This document shows positions 44,084 to 62,399 of a DNA stretch of 64,000 nucleotides, one piece after another. The translations under genes and the position numbers were made by a program. The notes beneath the pieces were generated by a model that did no database searches, was not told where the DNA came from, and saw only the letters and a program-made list of their open reading frames with translations. The stretch is from a bacterium (GTDB taxonomy: Bacteria; CG03). The stretch's first letter is position 1; each line of letters begins with the position of its first letter. The stretch is taken from contig JBDRRS010000014.1 in NCBI GenBank assembly GCA_043825615.1, positions 31,029 through 95,028 on the forward strand. Direction: 5' to 3'.

Positions 44084-44094
44084 CTTTTCCTCCT

Positions 44095-44215: not shown

Positions 44216-44247
44216 CTAGTCAATTCTACTTGCTTTATTAAAATCAC

Positions 44248-44427
44248 TCAATAGACATTTTTGGACATAGATGTCCTGCCTGTAATTCTTGAGACCTGCC
44301 TGACGGAAAGGCCGAATTTTCCGGCGATGACTTTCAATAATTTTCCCTTTTTTCTCAACAGTATTATTTCCTTGTCCCGCTGCGCCAGGTAATGCCTGAA
44401 AATGTTATTAAGTTTCTTTTTGTTCAT
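44248..44427 (-). CDS. Small hypothetical HTH-type protein (60 aa)
   Basis: MNKKKLNNIFRHYLAQRDKEIILLRKKGKLLKVIAGKFGLSVRQVSRI has a sigma-70 region-4-like HTH. The ATG lies 1 nt after the btuD stop. The longest ORF (to 44547) overlaps btuD. Confidence 0.3.
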   Translation of the reverse strand: MNKKKLNNIFRHYLAQRDKEIILLRKKGKLLKVIAGKFGLSVRQVSRITGRTSMSKNVY

Positions 44428-44428
44428 T

Positions 44429-45190: not shown

Positions 45191-46107
45191 TTTTTTCCAT
45201 AAAGCCAGATAAAATACGGCGCGCCGACGAGAGCGGTGATAACCCCTACGGGGATTTCCATCGGGTAGAGAATACTCCGGGCAAGAATGTCCGAACAGAT
45301 TAGAAGACACGCTCCGGTGGCGCCGGAACTTATGATTAAAAATCTGGCGTCCGCGCCTGTAAATTTCCTCGCAATGTGGGGCGCCATGAGCCCGACGAAG
45401 CCCACTGTCCCTGAGATGGAAACGGCCGCCCCGACGAGGAGGGAGGCAATGATAAGCAGGTTTTTGGACGATTTGTTAAAGTCAATTCCGAGCTGGCGGC
45501 TGAGCCCGTGTCCGAAAGAAACGGCGTTCAGGATTCTCGCGTTAAGAAACAGGCCCGCCGAAAAGATAACTGTTATAAAAGCGGAAGTTACAATGAGTGA
45601 AGTGTTCGTTTCGCTCAGGTCGCCCATCATAAAGTACAAAACGGAAAACGCCTCTTTTCTTTTCAGGGTGATAATCAGTATGACGAGAGCGGAGAGAAAA
45701 AAATTCAGCGCCACGCCGGAAAGGATGAGGGTATTTCTTGAGAGGAACTTTCCGGAAATTCTGAGGACGATGTAAACCGCAAGGCAGGAGGAAAGACCGG
45801 CTGTCAGGGGGTAGATTACGCCTGTCCGCGCAATGCCGAACAGAATCAGCAGCGCAGTGCCGAGAGCCGCTCCCGAAGAACTTCCGAGCAGGTATGGGTC
45901 CGCCAAGGGGTTGGAGAAAACCATCTGAAAAGCAACCCCTGCCTCCGCCAGAGCGAATCCGCAGATTCCGGCGACGAGAATTCTCATCAGCCGGATTTTC
46001 ACGATTTCAGGCGCAGGCCACCCGCCGGCGGTTAAGGAAATGAGGGCGGAAACAGCGACAGCAAGGGCGCTTATTACCAGAATTTTAAAAAATTTACTTT
46101 TTTGCAT
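45187..46107 (-). CDS. btuC: FecCD-family ABC permease (BtuC-like)
   Basis: 306 aa with about 9 TM helices of the FecCD fold. It lies between the binding-protein and ATPase genes. Confidence 0.8.
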   Translation of the reverse strand: MQKSKFFKILVISALAVAVSALISLTAGGWPAPEIVKIRLMRILVAGICGFALAEAGVAFQMVFSNPLADPYLLGSSSGAALGTALLILFGIARTGVIYPLTAGLSSCLAVYIVLRISGKFLSRNTLILSGVALNFFLSALVILIITLKRKEAFSVLYFMMGDLSETNTSLIVTSAFITVIFSAGLFLNARILNAVSFGHGLSRQLGIDFNKSSKNLLIIASLLVGAAVSISGTVGFVGLMAPHIARKFTGADARFLIISSGATGACLLICSDILARSILYPMEIPVGVITALVGAPYFIWLYGKK

Positions 46108-46990
46108 CGGGCGTACGCAAGTAAGGCGGAGACGGTTTCTTTTCGGTATGTTTTTCCCCCAGTAATTTTGAGATGCGCCATCTGATTTCCCACATTCCCT
46201 CCACGATGCGGGGTCCGGGTCTTACGAGAATATCGGGGTTCGTCATAGAAATTATTTTTCCCCCGGAAAAAAAAGGATAAATCGAAAGGAATTCCTGAAC
46301 GGAAGTTCCCGTCAGGAGAATGAAGTCGGGTTTTTTCTTTATGAGCCACTCGACATTTATCTGCGGATAACTGTGAGGAAGAGTGCACACGTTCCGCAGC
46401 CCCAGCGTTCGGCACACGGAACTTAAAAAAGTGGGTTTAGAAGCGGCGATGAGCGGTTTGGAGCAGACCTCTATGAATACCGTTTTATTTTTTATTTTGG
46501 GAATCTGTTTAATTTCGCCCTTCATTTTCAGAAGGAGTTTTTCCGCATTTTTCTTTTCCCCTATGATGGTTCCTATCTCTGAAATTTGCTTAAAAAGTTC
46601 GTCAACGGTTTCCGGGTGGTAAATTCTTATCTCGTAACCGAGATTTCCGAGAGACCGTAATACTTTTCCCTGGCCGGGCCCTGCCGCAAAAATTTTTGTG
46701 GGTTTCAGCAGGATTATTTTTTCGATTGACGGGAATGAAAAGTCGCCGACCCGCTCTTTTCCCGAAACCTCCTTCGGCCAGTTGCAGAAATTTGTGACGC
46801 CGGCAAGGTTTTTCTCGCCTTTGAGAGCATAAATTATTTCGGTTACCGCCGGGGACAGTGAAACAATTCTGAGTTTTTTCGGAGTTTCCCGCCGTCCGCA
46901 GGATATTGCCAGCAGTAAGAGAATAAATGGAATAAATGGTAAAGGAATAAATGGGGTCAGGTCTTGCAATGCAACATTTATTTTTTTCAT
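46094..46990 (-). CDS. btuF: Periplasmic cobalamin/siderophore-binding protein (BtuF-like, class III SBP)
   Basis: IVSLSPAVTEIIYALKGEKNLAGVTNFCNWP matches the BtuF/FhuD N-lobe. A cobalamin riboswitch-like element lies in the leader. Confidence 0.7.
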   Translation of the reverse strand: MKKINVALQDLTPFIPLPFIPFILLLLAISCGRRETPKKLRIVSLSPAVTEIIYALKGEKNLAGVTNFCNWPKEVSGKERVGDFSFPSIEKIILLKPTKIFAAGPGQGKVLRSLGNLGYEIRIYHPETVDELFKQISEIGTIIGEKKNAEKLLLKMKGEIKQIPKIKNKTVFIEVCSKPLIAASKPTFLSSVCRTLGLRNVCTLPHSYPQINVEWLIKKKPDFILLTGTSVQEFLSIYPFFSGGKIISMTNPDILVRPGPRIVEGMWEIRWRISKLLGEKHTEKKPSPPYLRTPDAKK

Positions 46991-47357: not shown

Positions 47358-47414
47358 TTGACAGGATTTTGTTTTCAAATTATAATATTACCAAAGCGGT
47401 AATTTTGGTAATTA
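47358..47414 (+). promoter_or_regulatory. Sigma70 consensus promoter (TTGACA-N17-TATAAT) followed by the inverted repeat ATTACCAAA-N8-TTTGGTAAT. Candidate Rrf2 operator.
   Basis: ttgaca 47358-47363 and tataat 47381-47386. Inverted-repeat arms 47387-47395 and 47404-47412. SD ggagg 47418-47422. ATG 47428. Confidence 0.5.
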
Positions 47415-47976: not shown

Positions 47977-48903
47977 ATGGCGAAAATAGCGGATAGCGTT
48001 CTTGGTTTGATTGGAAACACCCCGCTGGTCAGGTTAAGGAAAATAACTGCCGGCGCAGGAGCTGAGATTGTCGGGAAACTTGAATTTTTCAATCCCTGCG
48101 GGAGTGTGAAAGACCGTATCGGCGTGAGTATGATTAATGAAGCGGAAAAGCAGGGCTTACTAAAAAAAGGTTCCGTGATTGTCGAACCGACCAGCGGTAA
48201 CACCGGTATTGCGCTTGCTTTTGTGTGCGCGGTTAAGGGATACCGTTTGATTCTTACAATGCCGGATACGATGAGCATTGAGAGGAGAACGATGCTCAAG
48301 GCATTTGGCGCCGAAATAATTTTGACTCCCGGCAGTGAGGGAATGAAAGGGGCTATTGATAAGGCCGGAGAAATTACAAAGAAGAACAGCAAAGCATTTA
48401 TGCCCCAGCAGTTTAAAAATCCCGCCAATCCCGAAATCCACCGGAAAACCACTGCACTGGAAATCTGGAGGGACACGGACGGGAAGGCGGACATTCTTGT
48501 TTCAGGCGTGGGAACCGGCGGAACAATTACAGGGATAGCCGAAGTAATAAAAAAGAAAAAGCCGGAATTCAAAGTTATTGCCGTTGAACCGGCGGATTCA
48601 GCGGTTCTTTCCGGCGGCCCTGCGGGTCCGCACAAGATTCAGGGAATAGGCGCCGGTTTTATCCCGGATGTTTTGAACAGAGAAGTTATTGATGAAATAA
48701 TAACGGTTGAAAATGAAGATGCGATAGAAACCGCGAGGAAACTCGCAAAAGAAGAAGGGATATTTGCCGGAATTTCCTCCGGAGCGGCTGTTTATGCGGC
48801 AATAAAAATTGCCGGACGAAAGGAAAATAAGGGAAAACTGATTGTTGTGATTCTTCCCGATTTAGGAGACAGGTATTTATCGACGGAGGTGTTTAATGTT
48901 TAG
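47977..48903 (+). CDS. cysK: Cysteine synthase A (O-acetylserine sulfhydrylase)
   Basis: IGNTPLVRL, the PLP-lysine region NPCGSVKDR, and [10 protein letters not shown]. The longest ORF starts at 47911. The ATG at 47977 has SD gaaggggga. Confidence 0.85.
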
Positions 48904-49014: not shown

Positions 49015-50223
49015 ATGGCGAAGACGATTTCCGAAATAAATGAAAAAATAAAGAAAGGTGAAGCGGTTGTATTAACTGCCGAGGAGATGACGGACTTTGT
49101 AAGTAAAAAAGGGGCAAAGACCGCAGCGAAGGAAGTGGACGTCGTAACAACAGGGACATTCGGCCCGATGTGTTCCAGCGGGATGTATCTTAATATAGGA
49201 CATTCCAAGCCGAAGATAAAACTGGGGGGAGGGTCCTGCACACTTAACGATGTTCCGGCTTATTGCGGTTTTGCCGCAGTAGATATTTATCTCGGATGCA
49301 CGCATCTGCCCGACGATGACCCGCGTAACAAGGTCTATCCGGGCGAATTCAAGTACGGCGGAGGTCATGTGATAGAGGATTTTGTCGCCGGCAAGGATAT
49401 CAAGCTTATTGCCGCGGCGTACGGCACTGATTGCTATCCAAGAAGGAAACTGGAGACATTGATAAACATCAAGGATGTAAATGAGGCTGTTCTTTTCAAT
49501 CCGCGGAACGTATACCAGAATTACAACGTGGCGGTCAATTTAAGCGACAAAATAATTTACACCTACATGGGCGCGCTGAAACCGAATCTGGGTAATGCAA
49601 ATTACTGCAGCGCCGGTCAGCTGTCGCCCCTGCTGAACGACCCTCTGTACAAAACTACAGGAATCGGAACAAAGATTTTTCTCGGCGGCGGCACCGGTTA
49701 TGTTGTGTGGCAGGGAACCCAGCACAACCCGACTGTCAAAAGAAGGGAAAACGGCGTCCCGGTATCTCCCGCAGGAACGCTTGCCGTTATCGGGGATTTG
49801 AAAGAAATGTCTTCCGAATGGCTTAAAGGAACAAGCATGTTCGGTTACGGTGCAACTCTTACGGTGGGAATAGGCATACCCATTCCGATAATCAACGAGG
49901 AAATTGCCGTATACGCGGCAGTTAAAGATGATGACATTTTTGCTCCGATTGTTGATTACAGCGAAGCGTATCCAAATGCAAAACCCGGGAATTTAGGCGA
50001 GGTTTCTTACGCCCGGTTGAAGAGCGGAAAGATTACTGTTCAGGGGAAGGATGTCGCAACAGCTCCTCTATCCAGTTATTCAAAAGCAAAAGAAATTGCG
50101 GAGATTTTAAAAGAGCGGATAAAAAAAGGGCAATTCTTATTGACTGAACAGGTTGCTTCTATTCCCGGACCTGACTCAGGACTGAAATTCAAACCGCTTA
50201 AGGAAAGACCGCTGGAGCAGTAA
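49015..50223 (+). CDS. DUF39 / COG1900 protein (homolog of the methanogen L-aspartate-semialdehyde sulfurtransferase for homocysteine biosynthesis)
   Basis: 402 aa. The conserved DUF39 core has multiple Cys (GPMCSSGMYLN, GGGSCTLNDVPAYCGF). A NIL-ferredoxin partner gene is immediately downstream. Confidence 0.65.
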   Translation: MAKTISEINEKIKKGEAVVLTAEEMTDFVSKKGAKTAAKEVDVVTTGTFGPMCSSGMYLNIGHSKPKIKLGGGSCTLNDVPAYCGFAAVDIYLGCTHLPDDDPRNKVYPGEFKYGGGHVIEDFVAGKDIKLIAAAYGTDCYPRRKLETLINIKDVNEAVLFNPRNVYQNYNVAVNLSDKIIYTYMGALKPNLGNANYCSAGQLSPLLNDPLYKTTGIGTKIFLGGGTGYVVWQGTQHNPTVKRRENGVPVSPAGTLAVIGDLKEMSSEWLKGTSMFGYGATLTVGIGIPIPIINEEIAVYAAVKDDDIFAPIVDYSEAYPNAKPGNLGEVSYARLKSGKITVQGKDVATAPLSSYSKAKEIAEILKERIKKGQFLLTEQVASIPGPDSGLKFKPLKERPLEQ

Positions 50224-50224
50224 A

Positions 50225-50632
50225 ATGGTTACCGAACGAATTGTATTGAAATTTCCGAAGCGTGTGGTTGACCAGCCTGTCATATGCCGTCTGGTAAAAG
50301 AATACGACCTTGAATTCAACATCCTCAAAGCTTATATTACACCGCAGGAAGAGGGTCTAATGGTTCTGGAACTGAAAGGAGAGGATGAAAACTACAGGAA
50401 AGGAATAGATTATTTGAAGGGCACAGGCGTGAAAGTTCAGTTGCTGAGCAGTGATATAATTCGCAATGACGCAAGATGTACCCATTGCGGTGTTTGTATA
50501 TCTGTATGTCCGACAGGCGCGCTGGTTATTGATTCTGTTACCCGCAAAGTTCGTTTCCATAATGAAAAATGTATTGCCTGCGAACTCTGTGTTCCCGCCT
50601 GTCCGGTGAGAGCAATGGAAGTAAGTTTTTAA
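50225..50632 (+). CDS. NIL-domain plus 2x[4Fe-4S] ferredoxin protein (MA1822-like partner of DUF39)
   Basis: 135 aa. Two CxxCxxCxxxCP motifs (CTHCGVCISVCP, CIACELCVPACP) after an N-terminal NIL-like domain. Start lies 2 nt after the DUF39 stop. Confidence 0.65.
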   Translation: MVTERIVLKFPKRVVDQPVICRLVKEYDLEFNILKAYITPQEEGLMVLELKGEDENYRKGIDYLKGTGVKVQLLSSDIIRNDARCTHCGVCISVCPTGALVIDSVTRKVRFHNEKCIACELCVPACPVRAMEVSF

Positions 50633-50638
50633 TTTAGA

Positions 50639-50947
50639 GTGGACATCCTGGAAAAAATAGCAGAACTTAAAAGTCAGGGGAAGAAAGGGGCATTGGCTAC
50701 AGTGGTTGACACGAAGGGTTCAACGCCCAGGAAAGCCGGCGCAAAGATGCTGGTTTTGGAAGACGGAACCTTTTCAGGTTCCATTTGCGGGGGTTGTGTC
50801 GAGGCGGAGGTTTATCAGGAGGCCTGCCGGGTATTGAAAGACGGAGAGCCGAAAGTATTAGAGTTCAAACTTAACGAGAGAGAAATGCCGGAAGAAAGCG
50901 GTTTGATTTGCGGAGGAATAATGAAAATATTTATTGAACCGATATGA
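50639..50947 (+). CDS. XdhC/CoxI N-terminal-domain-only protein
   Basis: 102 aa. GALATVVDTKGSTPRKAGAKMLV...GSICGGCVEAEV matches the XdhC_CoxI N-domain. GTG start. Confidence 0.5.
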   Translation: MDILEKIAELKSQGKKGALATVVDTKGSTPRKAGAKMLVLEDGTFSGSICGGCVEAEVYQEACRVLKDGEPKVLEFKLNEREMPEESGLICGGIMKIFIEPI

Positions 50948-51702
50948 GAGGGGGAAATAAGATGCTTAAAGACAAAATTCTTTTAGGGAAATCCGGAGAA
51001 AATGTTGCGGAGCTTGTAGAAAAGTTGAATTTTGCCGAGAAGGTTGAAAGGTCTCTTGAATTAATAGATGCTGCTTATAAGGAATTCGGCGACGGGCTCG
51101 TTGTGGCGAACAGTTTAGGAAAGGACTCAAGCGCAGTCTGGCATCTTGCAAAAAGAGTTAGTCCGAAAATAAAAGGATTTATTGTTACAACACGTTTTAA
51201 ACCGGACGAGACAAAACAGTTTATGAAAGAAGAAGTCGGCAGGTATTCCGAATTAAGGGTTTTTAAAAATGATGAAGAAGTTCCCGAAAAACTTTATGAA
51301 ACCGACCCTGACCGCTGCTGCGATATTCTAAAAGTCAAACCCACCCGTCAGGCAATCGAAGAGATGAATGTAACCTGCTGGGTCACAGGTCTCAGATGCA
51401 CCGAGGGAAGAACCAGAACGGACTTTAAAGAAGTTGAAGAGAGGGATAAGGGGCTTCTTAAACTTAACCCGATTCTCATCTGGTATGAGCGGGAAATATG
51501 GCAGTATCTGGCTCTGAACAGAGTTATTGTCAATCCTCTTTATGCGAAGGGCTACAGATCTCTTGGATGCGCTCCGTGCACAAAAATTACATCCGGCATA
51601 GATGAGCGTGCAGGCAGATGGGTTAATACAAGCAAGTGCGGGGGAGAATGCGGAATACACACTCAACCCCTGAAGACAAATGTGGACGGTGACGGGATTT
51701 GA
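50944..51702 (+). CDS. PAPS/APS reductase-family protein (CysH-like, PP-loop ATP-pyrophosphatase fold)
   Basis: PP-loop-like SLGKDSS and a C-terminal Cys cluster (RSLGCAPCT...CGGECG). 252 aa. Confidence 0.65.
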   Translation: MRGGNKMLKDKILLGKSGENVAELVEKLNFAEKVERSLELIDAAYKEFGDGLVVANSLGKDSSAVWHLAKRVSPKIKGFIVTTRFKPDETKQFMKEEVGRYSELRVFKNDEEVPEKLYETDPDRCCDILKVKPTRQAIEEMNVTCWVTGLRCTEGRTRTDFKEVEERDKGLLKLNPILIWYEREIWQYLALNRVIVNPLYAKGYRSLGCAPCTKITSGIDERAGRWVNTSKCGGECGIHTQPLKTNVDGDGI

Positions 51703-51708
51703 TGGTAA

Positions 51709-52677
51709 ATGGTGAAGTATAGTTTTCTTACATTGCTGGTAATCCTGTTTGCAATGAATATGGGCGGCAGCGGTATTGCGCCTTCTTTTGCGGCAAGTTA
51801 CGGCAGTAAAATAATTAAGAAGAAATTTGCCGTAATTCTATTTACAATATTTGTATTTCTGGGAGCGGTTACAGTCGGCAGAAATGTCGTTAAAACTTTA
51901 AGCAGCGGCATAATATCACCGGAATTTATTAATTTTGATGTTGCGTTAATCATAATTCTGTCTGCAACATTAACTCTCGCTCTGGCGAATTTCCTGAGGA
52001 TACCGGAATCCACAAGCATGGTAACAGTCGGAGCGATAGTAGGAACCGGTGTATTTTTCGGCAATGTCCATTTGAAACTTTTGTACCGGATGCTGTTGCT
52101 ATGGATTACTTTTCCGGTCGTATCATATTTTTTAACATACTGGCTGTATAAAATAGTCTATCCGCCTTCTAACAGGAATTTATGGATTTATGAAAAGTTC
52201 CTTATAAAAGAGAAAAATTTCAGAATATTCACCATAATTGCGAGCTGTTACGGCGCATTTGCCGTCGGAACGAATAATGTCGCCAATGCAATAGGGCCTC
52301 TGGTCGGCGCTGAACTTGTAACTCCTTCTATGGGATTATTGCTGGTTACTCCGTTTCTGGGGCTTGGAGGTCTTCTCTTTGGAAAGAGAACGATTGAAAC
52401 CTTCAGTAATGAAATTGTTCCTCTGGGAAATATTTCCGCGCCCTTGATTGTATTTGTTACCGGAACTCTGCTTATTTTAGCATCGGCTCTCGGCTTTCCT
52501 TATCCGTATGTGCAACTTACTGCATTGTCTATTTTAGCAATCAGCAGCGTCAAAAACGGATATAAACATACAATGCGCCAGAACGTGGTCAGGAAAATCT
52601 TCAAAATATGGGCCGTCACTCCTTTGTTTTCCGCAGGCCTGGCGTTTTTGCTTCTAACAATATTTTTCAGGAGATAG
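51709..52677 (+). CDS. PiT-family anion permease (phosphate/sulfate transporter, CysP-like)
   Basis: 322 aa with about 9 TM helices. The N-terminus NMGGSGIAPSFAASYGS and the internal repeat GTNNVANAIGPL are PHO4/PiT signatures. Confidence 0.65.
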   Translation: MVKYSFLTLLVILFAMNMGGSGIAPSFAASYGSKIIKKKFAVILFTIFVFLGAVTVGRNVVKTLSSGIISPEFINFDVALIIILSATLTLALANFLRIPESTSMVTVGAIVGTGVFFGNVHLKLLYRMLLLWITFPVVSYFLTYWLYKIVYPPSNRNLWIYEKFLIKEKNFRIFTIIASCYGAFAVGTNNVANAIGPLVGAELVTPSMGLLLVTPFLGLGGLLFGKRTIETFSNEIVPLGNISAPLIVFVTGTLLILASALGFPYPYVQLTALSILAISSVKNGYKHTMRQNVVRKIFKIWAVTPLFSAGLAFLLLTIFFRR

Positions 52678-52679
52678 AA

Positions 52680-53480
52680 GTGATATATTTAGAGAAAAAA
52701 CAGTTCAGCCGGATGATAGAACATTGTCAAAAAGAGTATCCTAAGGAGGCATGTGGAATTCTTGCCGGGAAAGCTTGTCCTGAGCGGGGCCGAAGGGATG
52801 AAAGGGTATCAAAGGTGTATAAAATGGTTAATACCTCGGAGAAACCTGAAATCTGTTATTTTATGGAACCTAAAGAGCAATTAAAAGTATTTAAAGAAAT
52901 GCGTCGGCTCGGTGTAGAGATGTTAGGAATATATCACTCTCATTCGGAGACTTTAGCCTATCCGTCAAAACGGGATTGCGAAATGGCATTCTATCCTGAA
53001 GCATCTTATGTGATCGTTTCGTTACAGGATTTTAATAAACCTGATGTGCGGGCTTTTAAAATTATGGAAGATAAAATTGATGAGGAACAAGTTGTGGTGA
53101 GAAAAAACATTCTTTTTGTCTGTGTAGAGAATTCATGCAGGAGCCAGATAGCAGAAGCGATAGTTAATAATCTTCACCGGCAGAAATTTGTCGCTTACAG
53201 CGCAGGCTCAAAGCCTTCCGGCGCCGTGAATCCGTTGGCAATAGAAGTAATGAAGGAAATAGGAATCGATATTTCCGGGCAAAAAAGCAAGGGCTTTGAT
53301 ACAGTCGGAGATATAGAATTTGACTATGTAATAACCATGGGCTGCGGTGATTCTTGCCCTGTTTATCCTGCAAAAGAGAGTTTTGACTGGCAGATAGATG
53401 ACCCGAAGAATAAACCAATAGAGTTTTTTCGAAAGGTGAGAGATGAGATTCAAAGAAAAATTCAGGAGTTGTTAAAATGA
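52680..53480 (+). CDS. Fusion protein: JAMM/MPN+ metalloprotease (Mec+/CysO-cleaving type) plus an LMW-PTP-family arsenate reductase (ArsC, thioredoxin-coupled type) domain
   Basis: JAMM motifs EACGIL ... HSHSETLAYPSKRD. The C-terminal half aligns with B. subtilis-type ArsC (FVCVENSCRSQIAEA, TMGCGDSCP, FFRKVRDEIQRKI). GTG start has SD aggaga 6 nt upstream. The longest ORF begins at 52608. Confidence 0.65.
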   Translation: MIYLEKKQFSRMIEHCQKEYPKEACGILAGKACPERGRRDERVSKVYKMVNTSEKPEICYFMEPKEQLKVFKEMRRLGVEMLGIYHSHSETLAYPSKRDCEMAFYPEASYVIVSLQDFNKPDVRAFKIMEDKIDEEQVVVRKNILFVCVENSCRSQIAEAIVNNLHRQKFVAYSAGSKPSGAVNPLAIEVMKEIGIDISGQKSKGFDTVGDIEFDYVITMGCGDSCPVYPAKESFDWQIDDPKNKPIEFFRKVRDEIQRKIQELLK

Positions 53481-54631
53481 ATTTTATTCTTTTAGGGATT
53501 AGTCATAAAACCGCTCCGGTAAAAGTGAGGGAGAGATACTCATTTTCTAAAAAGCGGCTTTCAGAGACTTTGATTAGATTATCCAGGAATAAAATGATAG
53601 ATGAAGTGGTGCTCCTTTGCACCTGCAATCGAACAGAAATATATGCAAACACACTTGCCCGCCGCGACTTGGCAGGCGGGGATTTTACAGATGCGGCGAA
53701 AAAATCTTTATACAGCGAATTACGCCGTGCCTGCCGGCAGGCAGGAACTACGAACTACCCCACGACTTCGCTTAGGGCAGGCGAATTACAATACTTTTAT
53801 TTCCTGCAAAACAAGGATGTGATCAAACATCTTTTCAGGGTTGGTGCAGGTCTTGATTCTCAGGTTATTGGAGAAAGCCAGATTCTGGGACAGGTGAAAA
53901 ATGCATATTTCCATGCAAAAGAACTGGGAACAACAGGGAAATATTTCTATAAGCTGTTTCAGAAAGCAATAGAAGCAGGCAAGATTGTACACAGGACAAC
54001 TAAAATATCTGAGGGGAATATTTCTATTGGTACTGTTGCATTGAGGATGGCTGAGAATTTATTGGGAACTTTGAATGGAAAGAAGATTTTGATAATTGGA
54101 ACAGGAAAAACCGGCGAATTAGCAGCTAAATATCTGGCAGATAGAGGAATATCCGGATCCTTTGTTGCTAATAGAACCCATGAAAAGGCAATAGAACTCG
54201 CAGCAAAAATTGGCGGCAGAGCAGTCGGATTTAATAATCTGAAAAATGAAATTAAAGATACAGACATCATTATCAGCGCCACAGCCAGTCCGCATTTGAT
54301 TTTGAAAAAAGAGATGATTAGAGAGATTATGAGTCTTCGCAGAAAACCTCTTTGTTTAATGGACCTGGCATTACCGCGTGATATAGACCCTGAAATAAAA
54401 TGTATTAATAATGTGAGTTTGTGCAATTTAGATGACTTTAATTTAATAATTGAAGAGAATTATAGAAAAAGAGTTCAAGAGGCAAAAAAAGCAGAAGAGA
54501 TTATAAAAGAAGAGGTGAAAAAATTTTGGAAATGTCTAAACGAACCACGAACAACCCCTCGACTTCGCTCGGGGCAGGCGAATTACGAACCACGGTTAGA
54601 ATCGGCACCCGTCCGAGCCGGCTTGCTTTAA
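53477..54631 (+). CDS. hemA: Glutamyl-tRNA reductase, with an in-frame repeat insertion and a repeat-derived C-terminus
   Basis: Active-site region VLLCTCNRTEIY, then HLFRVGAGLDSQVIGESQILGQ, and the NADPH-binding ILIIGTGKTGE. There is about 17 aa of extra sequence between the catalytic Cys region and the HLFRV block. Confidence 0.8.
   Translation: MNFILLGISHKTAPVKVRERYSFSKKRLSETLIRLSRNKMIDEVVLLCTCNRTEIYANTLARRDLAGGDFTDAAKKSLYSELRRACRQAGTTNYPTTSLRAGELQYFYFLQNKDVIKHLFRVGAGLDSQVIGESQILGQVKNAYFHAKELGTTGKYFYKLFQKAIEAGKIVHRTTKISEGNISIGTVALRMAENLLGTLNGKKILIIGTGKTGELAAKYLADRGISGSFVANRTHEKAIELAAKIGGRAVGFNNLKNEIKDTDIIISATASPHLILKKEMIREIMSLRRKPLCLMDLALPRDIDPEIKCINNVSLCNLDDFNLIIEENYRKRVQEAKKAEEIIKEEVKKFWKCLNEPRTTPRLRSGQANYEPRLESAPVRAGLL
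53745..53789 (+). repeat. Intragenic 45-bp repeat, copy 1 (inside hemA, in frame)
   Basis: gaactacgaactaccccacgacttcgcttagggcaggcgaattac. Flanked upstream by a second gcgaattac at 53716-53724. Confidence 0.45.
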
Positions 54632-55260
54632 AGCAGGCGGAGGAAGCAGCGGAGATGTTGAATGATTGTGAAATCAGGTTTGAGGTAAAAACATATAATA
54701 CTTCAGGAGATATGGATAAGACCACTCCGATTTCAGAAATTGACGGGTCTGATTTTTTTACGGACTTTCTTGAAAAAGCATTATTAAACGGTGAAATAGA
54801 TATAGCCGTGCATAGCGCTAAAGATTTACCTGATAAAATATCCGACGGACTGGTTATTGCTGCTGTAACCAGGTCAATAGACCCGTATGATGTGTTAATT
54901 TCCAAAAACAATTTAAGTTTAAGCGAACTTCCAAATGGCGCAAAAATCGCAACAAGCAGTATTCGGCGTAAAGAGCAGTTAAAAAAATACAGACCTGATT
55001 TTCAGATTCTGGATATTAGGGGCAATATTGAGGAACGTTTAGCAAAATTGGATAACAGTAACCTGGACGGCATTGTAATTGCCGCCGCCGGATTAATCCG
55101 TTTAGGTCTGGAAAACAGGATAACTCAAAAGATTCCTTTTGAAATTCTTGTGCCTCACCCTATGCAGGGAGCGCTGGCAATAGAGACACGTAAGGATAAT
55201 GAAGAAATGATTAACAGGGTGAAAAAACTGGACACAAGACATATTGAGAAGAAAAGATGA
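54526..55260 (+). CDS. hemC: Porphobilinogen deaminase (hydroxymethylbilane synthase)
   Basis: IGTRPSRLALKQAEE core, 244 aa. The N-terminal 20 aa are encoded by the repeat element. The start is ATG 54526 or 54532. It overlaps the hemA 3' end by about 100 bp in another frame. Confidence 0.8.
   Translation: MEMSKRTTNNPSTSLGAGELRTTVRIGTRPSRLALKQAEEAAEMLNDCEIRFEVKTYNTSGDMDKTTPISEIDGSDFFTDFLEKALLNGEIDIAVHSAKDLPDKISDGLVIAAVTRSIDPYDVLISKNNLSLSELPNGAKIATSSIRRKEQLKKYRPDFQILDIRGNIEERLAKLDNSNLDGIVIAAAGLIRLGLENRITQKIPFEILVPHPMQGALAIETRKDNEEMINRVKKLDTRHIEKKR
54542..54595 (+). repeat. Intragenic 45-bp repeat, copy 2 plus a partial third unit (spans the hemA 3' end and the hemC 5' end)
   Basis: gaaccacgaacaacccctcgacttcgctcggggcaggcgaattac followed by gaaccacgg. 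About 40/45 identical to copy 1 in the same orientation. Confidence 0.45.
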
Positions 55261-56633
55261 AAAAAGGTAAAGTTTATTTAATAGGAGCAGGCCCGGGTGA
55301 CCCGGGTTTGATTACCGTAAAGGGATTAGAGATTTTAAAACAGGCAGAAGTTGTAATTTATGATTATCTTGTGGATAAGACAATTTTGAAATATGCAAGT
55401 CCAACGGCAGAGTTGATATGCGCTGATGAATTAGATAGGGAAAGATTTAGCATAAATAAGATAATGGTGAAAAAAGCAAAAGCAGGAAAAAGAGTTGCGC
55501 GTTTGAAAAACGGGGACCCTTTTGTCTTTGGAAGGGCAAATGAAGAGATTGAAGCGCTGAGTAAAAACAGGATAGAATTTTCCGTGATTCCGGGAGTTAC
55601 TGCTGCAAATGCTGCCAGTTGTTTTAGCGGGATACCTTTAACAGCAAGAGGCGTTTCGTCAAATGTGGTATTTGCAACCGGTCATGAAGACCCTAAAAAA
55701 AATAAAGGTTTTATTAACTGGAAGAACATTGCTCAGGCTGATACCATTGTTTTATACATGGCAGTAGAAAACTTGCCTCAAATTACTCAAAAGTTGCTCG
55801 TATCAGGAAAGAAAATAAATACACCTGCAGCAGTTATTTCCGATGTGAGCAGGATTGGCCAGAAGATTGTTACAGGTGTTTTAAAAGATATTTCAAACAA
55901 GACAAAAGCAGAAAAAATATCTGCTCCTGCGATTGTAATTATCGGCGATGTTGTGAAAAAAGAAAGGAATTTTAACTGGTTCGGTAAAAACAGGAAGATA
56001 CTTTTTACAGGGCTTTCTTCGGAGAGGTTTTTTGAAAAAGGCATAATTTTTCATCTTCCCATGATTGAGATTAAACCTTTGAACGATTATAATGAGATGG
56101 ATAAATGGATTAAAAAGATAAATACTTTTGACTGGATTGTTTTTTCGAGCAGATTTGGAGCGCTTTATTTTTTCAGGAGATTATTAGGCCAGGGTTTTGA
56201 TACCCGTGTATTAAATGGAATAAAAATTGCGGCCATAGGAAATTCAACTGCTGGCAAATTAAGAGAATACGGCATCATTGCGGACATAATTCCGAAGCAG
56301 GAGTCGTCTTCCGGTCTGCTTGGGGAGTTGAGAAAATTAAACATTGCTGGTGCAAAGATTTTTCTGCCGCGCTCGGATATTGCTGATAAAGGTTTGACCG
56401 AAGGCTTAAAAAAGTTTGACGCTGTTGTTTATTCCTGTGTGGCTTACAGGAATGTTATGCCTGAAAATCTGCCGGACATGGACTTTGACTTTTTTGATGA
56501 GATTATATTCAGCAGTCCTTCAGCGGGAAGAAATCTTATAAAAAGATACGGAAAACCGCCGGAAAGAATCAGAATAAGAGCGATTGGTTCTGTGACCGGA
56601 AAGGAATTGAAAAAATGGGGTTTATCCGCTTAA
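55257..56633 (+). CDS. cobA: Uroporphyrinogen-III C-methyltransferase / uroporphyrinogen-III synthase fusion (CobA-HemD)
   Basis: The N-terminus VYLIGAGPGDPGLITVKG is the SAM-dependent tetrapyrrole methylase signature. The C-terminal 230 aa are HemD-like. Confidence 0.8.
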   Translation: MKKGKVYLIGAGPGDPGLITVKGLEILKQAEVVIYDYLVDKTILKYASPTAELICADELDRERFSINKIMVKKAKAGKRVARLKNGDPFVFGRANEEIEALSKNRIEFSVIPGVTAANAASCFSGIPLTARGVSSNVVFATGHEDPKKNKGFINWKNIAQADTIVLYMAVENLPQITQKLLVSGKKINTPAAVISDVSRIGQKIVTGVLKDISNKTKAEKISAPAIVIIGDVVKKERNFNWFGKNRKILFTGLSSERFFEKGIIFHLPMIEIKPLNDYNEMDKWIKKINTFDWIVFSSRFGALYFFRRLLGQGFDTRVLNGIKIAAIGNSTAGKLREYGIIADIIPKQESSSGLLGELRKLNIAGAKIFLPRSDIADKGLTEGLKKFDAVVYSCVAYRNVMPENLPDMDFDFFDEIIFSSPSAGRNLIKRYGKPPERIRIRAIGSVTGKELKKWGLSA

Positions 56634-57589
56634 GCCGTTTAAGAAGAAAAGAATCTTTACGGAAACTGGTTCAGGGCATCCGGATTTCTGTAAAAGATTT
56701 TGTTCTTCCTGTCTTTGTCCTTGAGGGGAAAAACAGGAAAGAGGAAATTTCCTCTATGCCCGGGGTCTTCAGGTTTTCCCCCGACAATTTAATAAAGGAA
56801 ATAGAAGAAGTGAAGAAATTGGGTATTATTGCAGTTCTTCTTTTTGGTGTCCCTGAAGAGAAAGATGAAAAAGGTTCTTCAGCTTTTGATAAAAATGGAA
56901 TTGTACAAAAGGCGGTTAAAAAAATAAGACAGGAATTCCCTGACATGGTATTAATAACCGATGTGTGCCTCTGCGGTTATACTTCCCATGGACATTGCGG
57001 CATAACAAAAATTAAAAGTTGCATTATTGACAATGATGCTACTTTGAAAATCCTGTCAAAAATTGCATTGTCGCACGCACAAGCAGGCGCTGATATTGTT
57101 GCTCCCTCGGCAATGATGGACGGACAGGTAACGACAATAAGAGAAACGCTGGATAAAAAGGGTTTCAAAGATGTTGCCATAATGGGATATTCCGCAAAAT
57201 ATTCTTCAGGGTTTTATGGCCCGTTCAGAGAAGCTGCGCAATCGTCACCTCATTTCGGAGACAGAAAAAGTTATCAGATGGATTATCATAATGTAAGGGA
57301 AGCTTTGAGAGAGGTGGAAGCAGATATAAAAGAGGGCGCTGATATTGTTATGGTAAAACCGGCTCTAACTTATTTGGATGTAATAAAGACAGTAAAGGAT
57401 AATTACGGGATACCTCTTGCAGCCTATAATGTGAGCGGAGAATACAGCATGGTGAAAGCCGCTTCTATGCAGGGTTGGCTTAATGAAAAAAAAGCGGTAT
57501 TGGAGATATTGACTTCGATTAAAAGAGCAGGCGCAGATATTATCATAACCTACTGGGCAAAGGATGCAGCAAAATGGCTAAGAAAATGA
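56615..57589 (+). CDS. hemB: Porphobilinogen synthase (delta-aminolevulinic acid dehydratase)
   Basis: Cys-rich zinc site DVCLCGYTSHGHCG and active-site Lys regions. 324 aa. Confidence 0.85.
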   Translation: MGFIRLSRLRRKESLRKLVQGIRISVKDFVLPVFVLEGKNRKEEISSMPGVFRFSPDNLIKEIEEVKKLGIIAVLLFGVPEEKDEKGSSAFDKNGIVQKAVKKIRQEFPDMVLITDVCLCGYTSHGHCGITKIKSCIIDNDATLKILSKIALSHAQAGADIVAPSAMMDGQVTTIRETLDKKGFKDVAIMGYSAKYSSGFYGPFREAAQSSPHFGDRKSYQMDYHNVREALREVEADIKEGADIVMVKPALTYLDVIKTVKDNYGIPLAAYNVSGEYSMVKAASMQGWLNEKKAVLEILTSIKRAGADIIITYWAKDAAKWLRK

Positions 57590-58896
57590 ATAAAAGACTA
57601 TTTAAAGAAGCGGAGAAGCACATACCGGGCGGAGTGAATTCTCCTGTAAGGGCGTTTAAAGCAGTCGGTGGAACCCCCTTGTTTATTAAAAGGGGAAAAG
57701 GTTCGAAAATTTATGATGTTAAAGGAAGAGAATATATTGATTATGTGATGTCATGGGGCGCATTGGTCTTAGGACATGGTCATCCTGAAGTAATCAGAAA
57801 AGTCAGAGCCGCCCTTGTAAACGGAACAAGTTTCGGCGCTCCTACGCAGATAGAAACGGAACTGGCAAAAGAGATTTGTAAAGCATATCCTTCAATTGAA
57901 AAGGTACGCCTGGTAAATTCAGGCACAGAGGCGTGCATGAGCGCTGTAAGGCTGGCAAGAGGTTATACGGGAAGAGCAAAAATTATTAAATTTTCCGGTT
58001 GTTATCACGGTCATGCTGATTATCTGTTGGTTCAGGCAGGTTCAGGCATGACAACATTTCGTTCAACGAGTTTGGGGGTGCCAAAAGATTTTATCAAGTA
58101 TACTTTTGTTCTGCCATATAATAATTTAGATGCAGTTGAGAAAACAGTAAAGAAGTATCACAAAGATATTGCCTGTATTATTATAGAACCGATTGCAGGG
58201 AACATGGGCGTTGTATTGCCGGAAGGGGATTTTCTGCAGGGTCTTCGTGAAATTTGCGACCGGTATAAAATAGTCCTTATTTTTGATGAGGTGATTACGG
58301 GCTTCAGAGTTGCTTATGGCGGGGCACAGGAAATTTATAGAGTAAAACCTGACATAACCTGTCTTGGAAAAATTATTGGCGGAGGATTGCCCATAGGAGC
58401 ATTTGGCGGGAATAAGGAAATTATGGATAATCTTTCTCCCGGGGGAGATGTATATCAGGCAGGCACATTATCAGGCAATCCTGTTGGTGTAACCGCCGGT
58501 CTTACAACATTAAAAATTCTTTCCACAAGAAAAGTATACGGTTTACTTGAAAAAAAAGCCGGACTTCTTTGCAAAGGGATTGAAGAAAATATAAACAAGA
58601 CAGGAGTAAAAGCCGTTATAAACAGGGCGGGTTCAATGTTTACAATATTTTTTACAAATGAGAAGGAAGTTTGCTATTATAAAACAGCGGCACGGTCAAA
58701 TACCGGACACTATGCACAGTTTTTTCATGAAATGCTGAAACAGGGGATTTATCTACCTCCGTCACAGTTTGAGTCCTGCTTTGTTTCTATTGCGCATACA
58801 GAAGCTGATATTAAAAAAACAATAAAAGCGTCTTTAATGGCATTTGAAAAATATAAGGTCGCCTCTTCGGCGACCTGCCGGGGAGGCAGGAGGTAA
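57574..58896 (+). CDS. hemL: Glutamate-1-semialdehyde 2,1-aminomutase
   Basis: Class III aminotransferase PLP fold. HemL N-terminus GGVNSPVRAF and the FDEVITGFR PLP region. Confidence 0.85.
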   Translation: MAKKMNKRLFKEAEKHIPGGVNSPVRAFKAVGGTPLFIKRGKGSKIYDVKGREYIDYVMSWGALVLGHGHPEVIRKVRAALVNGTSFGAPTQIETELAKEICKAYPSIEKVRLVNSGTEACMSAVRLARGYTGRAKIIKFSGCYHGHADYLLVQAGSGMTTFRSTSLGVPKDFIKYTFVLPYNNLDAVEKTVKKYHKDIACIIIEPIAGNMGVVLPEGDFLQGLREICDRYKIVLIFDEVITGFRVAYGGAQEIYRVKPDITCLGKIIGGGLPIGAFGGNKEIMDNLSPGGDVYQAGTLSGNPVGVTAGLTTLKILSTRKVYGLLEKKAGLLCKGIEENINKTGVKAVINRAGSMFTIFFTNEKEVCYYKTAARSNTGHYAQFFHEMLKQGIYLPPSQFESCFVSIAHTEADIKKTIKASLMAFEKYKVASSATCRGGRR

Positions 58897-58897
58897 A

Positions 58898-59752
58898 ATG
58901 GCGGAATATGACATTAAACAATTGAAAGCCGGCGGATTTATGAAACAGAAGGGGAAAGATTTATTCTCAGTCAGACTCCGCATTGTCGGAGGTTTCGTTA
59001 AAAGTGCGCAGCTTCCCAAATTGCAGAAAATCGCTGATAAATACGGACGCGGTTATATTCATCTCACCACCCGTCAGGGAATTGAAATTCCCCATGTGCA
59101 TTTTAAGGATTTTGAGAATGTGAAAAAAGAATTAAAAGAAGCAGGTCTGGGAATTGGCGCCTGCGGCCCTCGCGTCAGGACAATAACCGCGTGTCAGGGA
59201 AAGGCCTGTTCCCACGGACTCATTGACAGCCAGGAGCTTGCCGGGCATATTGATAAAATATTTTTCGGCAGCGCCGGGCTGCCCCATAAATTTAAAATAG
59301 GTATTACAGGTTGCCCGAATGCCTGTATTAAGCCGCAGGAAAATGACCTTGGCATTATGGGAATAATAAAAAAAGGTTTTGATAAGAATCTGTGTAATTA
59401 TTGCGGATTGTGCGCGGAAGTCTGTCCTGTGAAAGCAATAAAAGTTAGTGAGGGAAACATTGAATACAATGAAAAAAAATGTATAGGCTGCGGGGAGTGT
59501 GTTTTTTCCTGTCCTACTTGTGCATGGAGAAAAGATATGGAAGGTTACAGGATATTTGCAGGCGGCAAGATGGGCAAGTTTCCTAAACTGGGTTTTCCGC
59601 TTTTTGATTTTTACAGGAATTTAGACGAATTGTTAAATATCATAGAAAGACTGTTTGAGTTTTATAAGGAACAGGGAATAAAAGGAGAAAGATTCGGAGA
59701 CACAATAGACCGGCTGGGAATAGAGTATGTTAAAAATAAGTTGAGTGTTTGA
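58898..59752 (+). CDS. Small nitrite/sulfite-reductase-like sirohaem-[4Fe-4S] protein with an extra ferredoxin-type 2x[4Fe-4S] insert
   Basis: NiR/SiR ferredoxin-like half-domain plus [16 protein letters not shown]...GCPNAC (sirohaem-coupled cluster) and [12 protein letters not shown] / [14 protein letters not shown] aggagg lies before the ATG at 58898. The longest ORF begins at 58844. Confidence 0.55.
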
Positions 59753-59763
59753 GGAGGAAAACA

Positions 59764-60906
59764 ATGGCAATAAAGATTTTAATTAACGGTAAAGAAGAGG
59801 AATTGGAGAAAGAGATGGAAGTTCTGGAGGTGCTTAAGAAAAAAAATATCCGGCCGGAAGTGGTAACCGTAGAGTTGAATAAAAAGATAATAAATAGTAA
59901 AGATTATCAGTCAACCCTGCTTAAACAGGGTGATGTGCTTGAGTTTGTCTTTTTTATGGGAGGAGGCCGGAGCAAAATGCCCGATGAAGTTGCCGGTAAT
60001 GTTCTGGAATTGGTAGGAAACACGCCTACGGTAAGATTGAACAGGATTGTTGACAAAGAGTGCGCGGAAGTTTATGCCAAGCTGGAATCTTTTAATCCGG
60101 GCGGCAGTGTCAAAGACCGTATTTGCCTTTCTATGATTGAAGATGCGGAAAAGAAAGGAAAATTGAAGCCCGGCGCAATAATCGTTGAACCGACATCGGG
60201 AAATACAGGAATAGGCCTGGCAATGGTGTGCGCGGTCAAGGGGTATAAATGCATTCTGACAATGCCGGAATCAATGAGTCTTGAACGGATATTTATATTG
60301 AAATCTTACGGAGCAGAGGTTGTTTTAACGCCGTCTGCCGAAGGAATGCAGGGAGCGATAAAAAAAGCGGAAGGGATTATTAAAAAGACCCGGAACAGTT
60401 TTATGCCGCAGCAATTTAATAATCCGGCTAATCCTGAAGTACACCGCAGAATCACTGCAAAAGAAATACTGGCGGTTCTCGACGGCAAACTGGACGCTTT
60501 TGTTGCCGGCGTAGGAACAGGCGGAACGATTACGGGAGTAGGCGAAATCCTTAAAAAGAAAAACCCGGATATAAAGATAATAGCAGTTGAACCTTTAACT
60601 TCAGCAGTGCTGTCCGGTAAAAGCGCCGGTCCGCATAAAATTCAGGGGATTGGCGCAGGTTTTATTCCGGAGGTTCTAAACCGCAAAATAATTGATAAAA
60701 TCATTACAGTGGGTGACAAGCAGGCTTTTGATATTGCGAGGCGGCTGGCCAGAGAAGAAGGTTTGTTAGTAGGTATTTCTTCCGGGGCGGCGGTCTTTGC
60801 CGCGCTTAAGACGGCAAAGGATTTAGGGGCGGGGAAAAGAGTGATTGTCATCCTGCCTGATACGGGAGAAAGATATTTCAGTATGGAGCAGTATTTTACT
60901 GCCTGA
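59764..60906 (+). CDS. Fusion: ThiS/MoaD/CysO-like sulfur-carrier domain (ending GGG) plus cysteine synthase (CysM/CysK-type PLP enzyme)
   Basis: The N-terminal 70 aa form a beta-grasp-like domain [12 protein letters not shown]...[17 protein letters not shown]. The linker [10 protein letters not shown] comes next, then the full OASS fold ([27 protein letters not shown]). This fold is about 65-70 percent identical to cysK at 47977. SD gaggagg. Confidence 0.65.
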
Positions 60907-60920
60907 TAGGGAGTAAAGAA

Positions 60921-61166
60921 ATGAATGATATGAAGATTGACGGGAAGCTCGACCTGCGGGGTGTAATTTGTCCGATGAATTTTGTTAAAACAAAACTCAA
61001 ACTTGAAGAGATGCAGCCGGGGCAAATTCTTGAAGTGATACTTGATGACGGTGAGCCGGTTAGAAATGTTCCGCGCAGTGTAAAAGAAGAAGGGCATAAG
61101 ATTGTCAAAGTGGAAAGACTTGAGAATGCCTTCAAATTGCTGATTAAAAAATCTACGGAGGTTTGA
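60921..61166 (+). CDS. tusA: TusA-family sulfurtransferase
   Basis: 81 aa. CPxP motif LRGVICPMNFVKTK at the N-terminus of the TusA two-layer fold. Confidence 0.65.
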   Translation: MNDMKIDGKLDLRGVICPMNFVKTKLKLEEMQPGQILEVILDDGEPVRNVPRSVKEEGHKIVKVERLENAFKLLIKKSTEV

Positions 61167-62399
61167 ATGTCTTTTGTTAGAGGACTAAAATGCAGAGAAT
61201 GCGGCAGAAAATATCCTAAAGAACCGATTTATGTGTGCGAGTATTGTTTCGGCCCGTTGGAAGTGGATTATGATTATTCAGGAATAAAGAAAAAGCTAAA
61301 CAGAGATTTGATTGTTTCACGCCCCAAAAATCTCTGGCGTTATCGTGAATTGCTGCCTATCGACGGCGACCCGGTGGTTGGTCTGCAATCAGGTTTTACA
61401 CCGCTGATTAAAGCGGATAATTTAGCAAAAAAATTAGGAGTGAAGGAGTTATATGTCAAAGATGATTCGGTGTGTCATTCGACTCTTTCTTTCAAAGATA
61501 GAGTGGTCTCGGTTGCTATCTCTAAAGCAAAAGAATTCGGCTTTGATACTGTTGCCTGCGCTTCCACGGGGAATTTGGCAAATGCCGTCTCCGCGCAGGC
61601 CGCTCAGGCAGGCATGAAATGTTTTGTTTTCATACCTGCGGACCTGGAATCAGGAAAAGTAATTGCTTCGCTGATATATGCCCCGAGGGTTATTGCAGTC
61701 GAGGGAAATTACGATGAAGTGAACCGTCTTTGCACGGAAGTTGCAAATAAATACAAATGGGCATTTGTTAATATCAATATACGGCCTTATTATGCCGAGG
61801 GCTCAAAAACTTATGTTTATGAAATTGTTGAACAGCTTGGCTGGCGCGCGCCGCGCCACATTATTGTTCCGGTTGCGGGAGGGTCTTTGCTTTCCAAAAT
61901 CTGGAAAGGCTTGCAGGAGTTTCAAAAATTAGGGCTGATTGACGAATTTAACACAAAAATTTATGCTGCCCAGGCGCATGGCTGCTCTCCTGTGGTTACG
62001 GCGATTAAAGAGAACAGCGAAATTATCAAGCCGGTAAAACCAAAGACAATTGCCAAATCTTTAGCCATCGGGAATCCTGCGGACGGATACTATGCTTTTA
62101 AGACGGTTATGGAAAGCGGCGGCTGGGGGGAGGAGGCAACCGATGCAGAAATAGTTGAAGGGATAAAACTGCTTGCTTTAACCGAGGGAATATTCACTGA
62201 AACAGCAGGAGGCGTTACTGTTGCCGTAGCCAAAAAGCTTATTGCTCAGGGGAGAATTCCGAAGGATGAGTCAATAGTTATTTCGATTACAGGCAACGGG
62301 TTAAAGACACAGGAGGCGGTAGCGGGCAAAACAGGGGAACCGGTAAAGATAAAAGCGAATATAGATTCTTTTGAAGAAACAGTCCAGGTAAAAGGATGA
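61167..62399 (+). CDS. thrC: Threonine synthase-family PLP enzyme with an N-terminal zinc ribbon
   Basis: CRECG...CEYCFGPLEV zinc ribbon. PLP-lysine context SFKDRVV. 410 aa. Confidence 0.7.
   Translation: MSFVRGLKCRECGRKYPKEPIYVCEYCFGPLEVDYDYSGIKKKLNRDLIVSRPKNLWRYRELLPIDGDPVVGLQSGFTPLIKADNLAKKLGVKELYVKDDSVCHSTLSFKDRVVSVAISKAKEFGFDTVACASTGNLANAVSAQAAQAGMKCFVFIPADLESGKVIASLIYAPRVIAVEGNYDEVNRLCTEVANKYKWAFVNINIRPYYAEGSKTYVYEIVEQLGWRAPRHIIVPVAGGSLLSKIWKGLQEFQKLGLIDEFNTKIYAAQAHGCSPVVTAIKENSEIIKPVKPKTIAKSLAIGNPADGYYAFKTVMESGGWGEEATDAEIVEGIKLLALTEGIFTETAGGVTVAVAKKLIAQGRIPKDESIVISITGNGLKTQEAVAGKTGEPVKIKANIDSFEETVQVKG

Follow-up and report, generated by a model that had tools for sequence, protein, structure and literature searches.

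We consider here a protein, ThiS1-CysK, in which a ThiS-type sulfur carrier (ThiS1) and a CysK-type cysteine synthase are encoded by one open reading frame (ORF). The ORF lies at positions 59764-60906 (plus strand) of a 64,000-nt stretch of bacterial DNA (GTDB lineage CG03; GenBank assembly GCA_043825615.1, contig JBDRRS010000014.1, positions 31,029 to 95,028), which was analysed as a whole and is called the window below. Synthesis of cysteine via a protein thiocarboxylate, involving CysO, CysM and Mec+, was reportedly established in Mycobacterium tuberculosis by Burns et al. in 2005, and the HcyS/HcyD/HcyF/sulfite reductase pathway of methionine synthesis in Wolinella succinogenes is said to have been described by Krishnamoorthy and Begley in 2011. 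In eukaryotes, polyubiquitin and ubiquitin-ribosomal protein precursors are processed by deubiquitinases. In the classification of Iyer et al. 2006 (PMC1779556), CysO-CysM-Mec+ corresponds to operon types 4c/4d, and type 4e covers sulfur-assimilation neighbourhoods combining ubiquitin-like (Ubl), JAB, E1 and SirA genes. The same study lists ThiS-ThiG, MoaD-MoaE and sulfite reductase-ThiS fusions, and no fusion of ThiS with cysteine synthase. MoaX, in which MoaD and MoaE of M. tuberculosis are fused, requires cleavage after Gly82 (PMC4326299). In D. radiodurans the JAMM protease DR0402 cuts the natural linear MoaD-MoaE fusion DR2607, exposing Gly, as summarised in PMC8832034 citing Yang et al. 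2018. HvJAMM1 and PfJAMM1 cut linear SAMP fusions whatever follows (PMC8832034). Finally, a thiocarboxylate route to homocysteine through MetO, MetM, Mec and MoeZ in Streptomyces, in which Mec matures the carrier MetO, is outlined in the GapMind 2026 preprint, which cites Hasebe et al. 2024. No description of a ThiS-cysteine synthase fusion was found in the open-access literature; this is weak evidence, being limited to open-access papers.

The ORF runs from the ATG at 59764 to the TGA at 60906 and encodes 380 aa. Its Shine-Dalgarno box GAGGAGG (59751..59757, plus strand, read from the sequence) is situated 6 nt ahead of the ATG and shares nucleotides with the stop codon of the preceding sulfite reductase gene. 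The reading frame is unbroken, and both domains are intact. The first domain, ThiS1 (aa 1-68, 59764..59967, plus strand), is matched by Pfam ThiS (PF02597) at aa 5-68 over profile positions 1-76 of 76 (E = 1.7e-10, 41.7 bits, cut-off 22.5), and by NCBIfam TIGR01683 (thiS) over positions 1-64 of 64 (65.1 bits, cut-off 37.45), with the C-terminal GG of the model aligned to G67-G68. An AlphaFold2 model of aa 1-74, based on a 32-sequence alignment, has the b-b-a-b-b-b topology of the beta-grasp fold and a mean predicted local distance difference test score (pLDDT) of 89.8. The closest PDB folds found by Foldseek are the ThiS structures 3CWI (TM 0.78/0.83), 1TYG_B, 1F0Z and 1ZUD. The domain ends with ...EFVFFMGGG and, if released, would have a predicted mass of 7796 Da. 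An earlier note, made from the letters of the DNA alone, had postulated an N-terminal carrier of 70 aa ending in GGG, and would have given it up if there were no beta-grasp fold and orthologues lacked the domain. The family models, the predicted fold and the ThiS structures bear out the carrier, and the domain recurs across homologues; its length up to the GGG, as counted here, is 68 aa, not 70.

The second domain (aa 75-380, 59986..60906, plus strand) is a cysteine synthase of the CysK type. Pfam PALP covers aa 82-366 (E = 8.8e-80), the score with TIGR01139 (cysK) is 459.9 bits (cut-off 350.95), and the nearest solved structures are CysK/OASS-A 2EGU and M. tuberculosis CysK1 2Q3B. The lysine K117 (SVKDR) that binds pyridoxal phosphate (PLP), the TSGNTG loop T144-G149 and the GTGGT loop G251-T255 are invariant in the family alignment. 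The C-terminus is clade-specific and carries the signature ERYFS. It is thus confirmed that the ORF joins, in frame, a true ThiS-type beta-grasp carrier and an intact enzyme of the O-acetylserine sulfhydrylase type. We hold the statements on architecture, and those on orthology given below, with very high confidence.

The same architecture was recovered by a database search. The best 120 homologues of the full-length protein (68-100% identity, about 379 aa) all consist of ThiS and PALP domains; the number of fused homologues, collected from NCBI, JGI, ENA and Logan, is a lower bound and amounts to at least 120. They originate from Omnitrophota, WS2, Caldiserica and 'bacterium Unc6', and among GTDB species representatives fused forms occur in Omnitrophota and Ratteibacteria. 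The scan of genome contigs with a single protein reached close relatives only and provides a taxonomic sample, not a census; at least five candidate phyla or lineages are represented in the family. Two genes that are really separate could look fused through an error in sequencing or assembly, through the loss of a stop codon or through a wrongly called start; close relatives do have split forms, and the database holds plainly frameshifted fragments, such as P0121-P0123. However, the Logan contig L001 matches the window over 14,237 nt with 100% identity and runs 7.1 kb past the window end, so that the same sequence is present in two independent assemblies. This second assembly, the fused homologues, the continuous reading frame with its intact domains, and the ribosome-binding site of the ORF make an artefact extremely improbable, and we rejected it together with the mis-called start.

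In the primary translation product the GGG of ThiS1 is internal, and a free C-terminus would need proteolysis. The proposed JAMM cleavage site is the G68-R69 bond at the 5' edge of the linker R69-D74 (RSKMPD, 59968..59985, plus strand, delimited by alignment). The linker varies across the family in both length and sequence: fused sequences have 12-24 residues between the last Gly and the conserved GNTP motif, and the position after the GGG (P1') is occupied by 11 different amino acids. The junction itself reads MGGG in 88 of 90 fused sequences and GGGG in the remaining two, and the GGG is kept in all 31 of 31 free-standing ThiS1 relatives. In the full-length AlphaFold2 model (pLDDT 75, 31-sequence alignment) pLDDT falls below 50 at the junction (aa 63-71), which suggests that the predicted junction is flexible and leaves it too uncertain to place the ThiS tail relative to the CysK active site in cis.

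The free-standing relatives were found by an exhaustive search with the 68-aa ThiS1 domain and are numerous. The nearest ones share a ThiS1 motif and end with GGG plus 0-5 residues (N, E, R, IH, YL, IQV, SRS, VTRG, NEQL and others), and more distant ThiS proteins end exactly at the GGG. Wherever the DNA context is visible, the free-standing ThiS1 gene is situated directly upstream of a CysK gene of the same clade. Such loci are found among the related database contigs compared with the window (L002-L006, L009-L013, L087-L089). In L006, ThiS1 ends with ...YYMGGGIH and is followed by AGGAGG and then by the ATG of a 311-aa CysK with the same clade-specific C-terminus. The terminal residues are MGGGN both in L005 and in the Endomicrobia contigs L009-L011, the latter having a 59-nt spacer before CysK, and the two ORFs overlap in L012 and L013. 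ThiS1 of L087 ends with MGGG, whereas the GGG is followed by 16 aa in L088 and by 4 aa in L089. A search with the CysK domain only yielded, among the best 120 proteins, 51 fused and 69 unfused ones (73-100% identity) interleaved by similarity, and 63 of these 69 unfused CysKs have the ERYFS signature. Since the split orthologues share the gene context, and since fused and unfused CysKs interleave, the fused protein is one of the forms taken by a conserved gene pair, ThiS1+CysK, which has been repeatedly fused or split. The fusion would be tolerated because a protease is needed anyway, as the tails after the GGG of free-standing ThiS1 presumably must be trimmed. The family illustrates an easy origin of such fusions: with an obligatory trimming protease, the loss of a stop codon would cost nothing.

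This history differs from the one suggested in the earlier note, which took the synthase domain for a close paralog, 65-70 percent identical, of the stand-alone CysK (47977-48903, plus strand, TIGR01139 480.6 bits, adjoining an Rrf2 regulator) and regarded recent duplication plus fusion as the simplest explanation. The two are paralogues, but their closeness is not supported: pairwise alignment by BLASTP gives 63% identity (192/304), whereas the fused domain has 73-85% identity with ThiS-partnered CysKs from other phyla, and thus the partnered enzymes form an old separate clade. The stand-alone housekeeping CysK has DRYLS instead of ERYFS. A recent duplication of this gene followed by fusion is not supported by the same comparison and was rejected, and repeated fusion and fission within the old clade takes its place.

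Some relatives have odd domain arrangements. Two proteins of 514 aa (P0004, P0006) are DUF454-ThiS-CysK fusions, DUF454 being a separate upstream gene in the related contig L004. In others (P0144, P0168) ThiS1 is joined to a C-terminal fragment of TusA, or ThiS to NIL. Some of these architectures may be artefacts of gene calling or assembly.

A candidate protease is encoded in the same locus, as the earlier note had stated. The gene of a JAB/JAMM metalloprotease fused to an LMWPc/ArsC-like domain (52680..53480, plus strand; Pfam Prok-JAB 3.4e-25, LMWPc 1.6e-25) lies about 6.3 kb upstream of the fusion, and its catalytic motif E...HSHx7SxxD is intact. A JAB gene with an intact HxHx7SxxD motif is present in 8 of the 8 related loci that reach far enough upstream. 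This JAB is a candidate for both processing the carrier and releasing cysteine. Stand-alone JAB proteins of 132-158 aa occur in six other relatives. The LMWPc/ArsC-like domain has the CX5R motif CVENSCRS, and the same JAB fusion is found in L004.

A second carrier fusion is situated just past the window end. The in-frame fusion ThiS2-ThiF (L001 15180-16277, corresponding to window coordinates 64943-66040) starts about 4 kb downstream of ThiS1-CysK, and its product matches Pfam ThiS and ThiF only, without a rhodanese domain. At the junction, ...SIIPAIAGG is followed by NGFSEEQIERYSRQI and runs straight into ThiF; the same fusion is present in L004. In L002, L003 and L088, ThiS2 is a free protein of 91-92 aa ending exactly with SIIPAIAGG, and in L087 and L089 the GG is followed by 2-6 extra residues. 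Because ThiS2 is free and GG-terminated in relatives, it can work here only if cut out, and its fusion to ThiF suggests that processing after GG may be routine in this lineage.

We propose that the ORF encodes a precursor, a single polypeptide made up of the ThiS1 carrier and the cysteine synthase that it serves. Firstly, the JAB/JAMM protease would cut the G68-R69 bond, separating a CysK of about 33 kDa from a carrier of 68 aa whose C-terminus is a Gly-Gly-Gly carboxylate. Secondly, the E1-like ThiF would adenylate the released carrier. Thirdly, sulfide from the sulfite reductase and/or a TusA persulfide would convert it into the carrier thiocarboxylate. The latter would then attack the aminoacrylate formed from O-acetylserine on the CysK domain, giving ThiS1-Cys after an S-to-N acyl shift. 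Finally, the same JAB would free cysteine and recycle the carrier, as in the CysO/CysM/Mec+ pathway. Judged from sequence comparison, this full chain, from JAB cleavage through ThiF activation and the thiocarboxylate to cysteine formation by the CysK domain, is fairly probable. Cleavage after the GGG, already envisaged in the earlier note, is what the comparative evidence favours most, being backed by the split orthologues, by the invariant GGG next to a drifting linker, and by the second GG-fusion in the genome.

Several points weigh against this scheme. The case for the cleavage itself is indirect and drawn from sequence comparison. The conservation of GGG among the fused forms alone is weak evidence, because most family members are 68-85% identical, and it is the split orthologues that carry most of the argument. 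The JAB gene does not adjoin the fusion but is separated from it by 6.3 kb. The E1 enzyme is encoded outside the window: none was seen among the ORFs of window positions 1-62400, and ThiF was found just past the window end via L001. The synthase belongs to the CysK type, whereas the use of a protein thiocarboxylate is known for the CysM type: the CysM models score below their cut-offs with the fused domain (TIGR01138, 302.3 bits against 394.2; NF008735, 286.3 bits against 413), and no CysM chain is present among the 60 PDB matches listed for it. ThiS1 may also have a role in thiazole synthesis, as the carrier scores as a thiamin-type ThiS. Finally, Iyer et al. 2006 (PMC1779556) argue that N-terminal Ubl domains on ThiF may be non-carrier.

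Two of these points, the indirect case for cleavage and the non-carrier proposal for ThiF-fused Ubl domains, would fit a different function of ThiS1. One possibility is that it is never cut off but stays on CysK for good, as a docking or regulatory module linking the enzyme to the E1, the sulfite reductase or TusA. The actual carrier would then be ThiS2, or CysK would use free sulfide, which is consistent with the presence of a second carrier and with the ordinary CysK type of the enzyme. However, orthologues of the domain are free-standing, end at or just after the GGG and are encoded directly upstream of orthologous CysKs, the GGG stays constant while the linker drifts, and the JAB gene always co-occurs. 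We therefore consider a permanent docking module unlikely.

The affinity of ThiS1 to thiamin-type carriers, seen both in the above-cut-off score with TIGR01683 and in the best structural matches, would also fit a model in which the two halves act independently. In this case the cleaved ThiS1 would serve the synthesis of the thiamin thiazole or some other thiolation, CysK would be translated mainly from an internal start and work on sulfide, and the fusion would be a remnant of translational coupling. Indeed, the Gly codons form a strong Shine-Dalgarno-like sequence GGAGGAGG, which is followed after 10 nt by the in-frame ATG of M72 in the linker (59959..59979, plus strand, read from the sequence), and M72 may be a start yielding free CysK. 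Such an internal start, which the earlier note had considered as a potential true start of the gene, would leave the ThiS domain in place. The linker Met is retained in 26 of 88 fused homologues, but 62 of 88 lack it. Moreover, within the sulfur-assimilation module ThiS1 always adjoins a CysK of this clade or is fused to one, thiG and thiH occur in none of the annotated related loci, and the genome has other small ThiS genes near ThiI, NadA and MnmA. The strict pairing and the lack of thiG/thiH in these loci argue for a shared function of ThiS1 and CysK, and independent halves seem quite unlikely.

The precursor scheme has a regulatory variant, in which uncleaved ThiS1-CysK and ThiS2-ThiF would be inactive pro-forms and JAB cleavage a regulated switch, perhaps gated by the ArsC/LMWPc-like redox domain. 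A parallel exists in archaea, where inhibition in SAMP1-MoaE is relieved by HvJAMM1. The JAB-LMWPc/ArsC and ThiS2-ThiF fusions co-occur, being found in the same two of the genomes examined, which with n=2 is a lead only. If the variant were true, a bacterial 'deubiquitinase' would switch on sulfur assimilation after translation; at present we regard it as rather improbable.

The genes around the fusion belong to a recurrent sulfur-assimilation module. Immediately upstream is the gene of a small siroheme sulfite reductase (58898..59752, plus strand; NIR_SIR and two [4Fe-4S] by Pfam and NCBIfam, AsrC-like), the probable source of sulfide, whose position next to the ThiS1-CysK pair is conserved in related loci. 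Downstream are a TusA/SirA-like sulfurtransferase gene (60921..61166, plus strand; Pfam TusA 1e-24), also conserved in related loci, and the gene of a ThrC-like PLP enzyme with an N-terminal zinc ribbon (61167..62399, plus strand; PALP, NinF-type zinc ribbon). In relatives the latter is always followed by ThiS2-ThiF-NIL, and by analogy its annotation as ThrC is probably wrong: it is likely to be a homocysteine synthase of the MetM type that depends on a thiocarboxylate and partners ThiS2. Upstream of JAB, the genes of PAPS/APS (phosphoadenosine/adenosine phosphosulfate) reductase and a PiT (PHO4) permease (50962..52677, plus strand, Pfam) are conserved in L002-L004 and L087-L089. The block hemA, hemC, cobA/hemD, hemB, hemL (53477..58896, plus strand, identified by ORF translations and Pfam labels), which presumably supplies siroheme precursors, is inserted between JAB and the sulfite reductase here as well as in L002, L003, L005 and L006. 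The module recurs in Omnitrophota-like, Latescibacteria, Nitrospirae and other contigs, and its usual members are (Rrf2), PAPS reductase, (ATP sulfurylase), PiT, JAB/JAMM, (hem genes), sulfite reductase, TusA, ThiS1+CysK, the zinc-ribbon ThrC-like enzyme, ThiS2 (91-97 aa, MoaD/Urm1-like), ThiF without rhodanese and a small NIL protein.

This locus resembles CysO-CysM-Mec+ in the proposed chemistry and in that a single sulfur-assimilation context brings together a GG-tailed beta-grasp carrier, a JAMM hydrolase and a PLP sulfhydrylase with the CysK/CysM fold. However, the carrier is a 68-aa ThiS-type protein and not a CysO/MoaD-type one of about 93 aa, the synthase is CysK and not CysM, the E1 lacks the rhodanese domain of MoeZ and TusA is present instead, and the carrier and the synthase form one polypeptide. 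As the types of the carrier, the synthase and the E1 all differ, the ThiS1-CysK system should not be counted as CysO/CysM/Mec+, although it most likely works like it. If the cleavage takes place, protein-thiocarboxylate synthesis of cysteine would extend past the actinobacterial CysM to ordinary CysK-type enzymes. All named fused homologues are labelled only 'cysteine synthase' or 'cysteine synthase A', and metabolic reconstructions of Omnitrophota, Elusimicrobiota and related groups would miss a carrier-dependent route because of this annotation.

The window together with L001 has the composition of type 4e neighbourhoods: a ThiS/MoaD-like carrier, JAB, a rhodanese-less E1, SirA/TusA, PAPS reductase and sulfite reductase. 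As in type 4e and HcyS-HcyD, the carrier would need C-terminal trimming by a JAMM enzyme; the extension to be removed is a 312-aa enzyme here and a single residue there. The partners are CysK and the ThrC-like protein, not O-acetylhomoserine sulfhydrylase, which was not seen in the window or L001, and there are two carriers. The resemblance to MetO/MetM, as far as the outline in the preprint goes, concerns the neighbours (61167-62399 and ThiS2-ThiF) and not the ThiS1-CysK fusion. It is set by the gene context: the ThrC-like enzyme adjoins a MoaD-like carrier and an E1, and a JAMM protease is needed for carrier maturation.

The fusion itself resembles MoaX and DR2607 in design, where the carrier is also N-terminal to its own partner enzyme, GG marks the junction, and split orthologues exist elsewhere. 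There, activity depends on cleavage after Gly, which a JAMM protease performs in Deinococcus; for ThiS1-CysK such cleavage is proposed, and the pair involves a PLP enzyme and the cysteine pathway rather than molybdopterin. Ubiquitin precursors likewise have an N-terminal beta-grasp protein released after a C-terminal Gly-Gly, but the protein released here would carry sulfur rather than modify other proteins, and its fusion partner is its own client enzyme. Since every component, and the logic of fusion plus JAMM cleavage, have precedents, ThiS1-CysK is a new example of a known principle and not a new kind of system. If the cleavage takes place, the family forms a second natural class of bacterial JAMM-processed carrier-enzyme precursors, after MoaD-MoaE. 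With its invariant GGG and any residue at P1', it offers a clean natural substrate for studies of prokaryotic JAMM specificity.

The short gaps between the genes from Rrf2 (47428) to 62399, all of them on the plus strand, suggest a single long transcription unit for sulfur assimilation. A perfect sigma-70 consensus TTGACA-17-TATAAT (12/12) occurs at 47358-47386 (plus strand), just upstream of the Rrf2 gene. Upstream of the PAPS reductase gene, the region 49015-50947 (plus strand) encodes HcyBio (a COG1900-type homocysteine biosynthesis enzyme), a NIL-ferredoxin and a small XdhC_CoxI protein; a second, methanogen-type homocysteine route in the same island is possible. Past ThiF, L001 16270-20406 contains genes for NIL, a ThiI-like protein, two small ThiS proteins (78 and 65 aa), NadA, NifU and MnmA, as judged by sequence a cluster of further sulfur-relay/thiolation genes with their own carriers. 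The only match in an Rfam scan of the whole window is a cobalamin riboswitch (RF00174, 47098-47213, minus strand, 49.4 bits), which is unrelated to the fusion and precedes a minus-strand operon encoding a substrate-binding protein, a permease, an ATPase and a TonB-dependent receptor (42158-46990).

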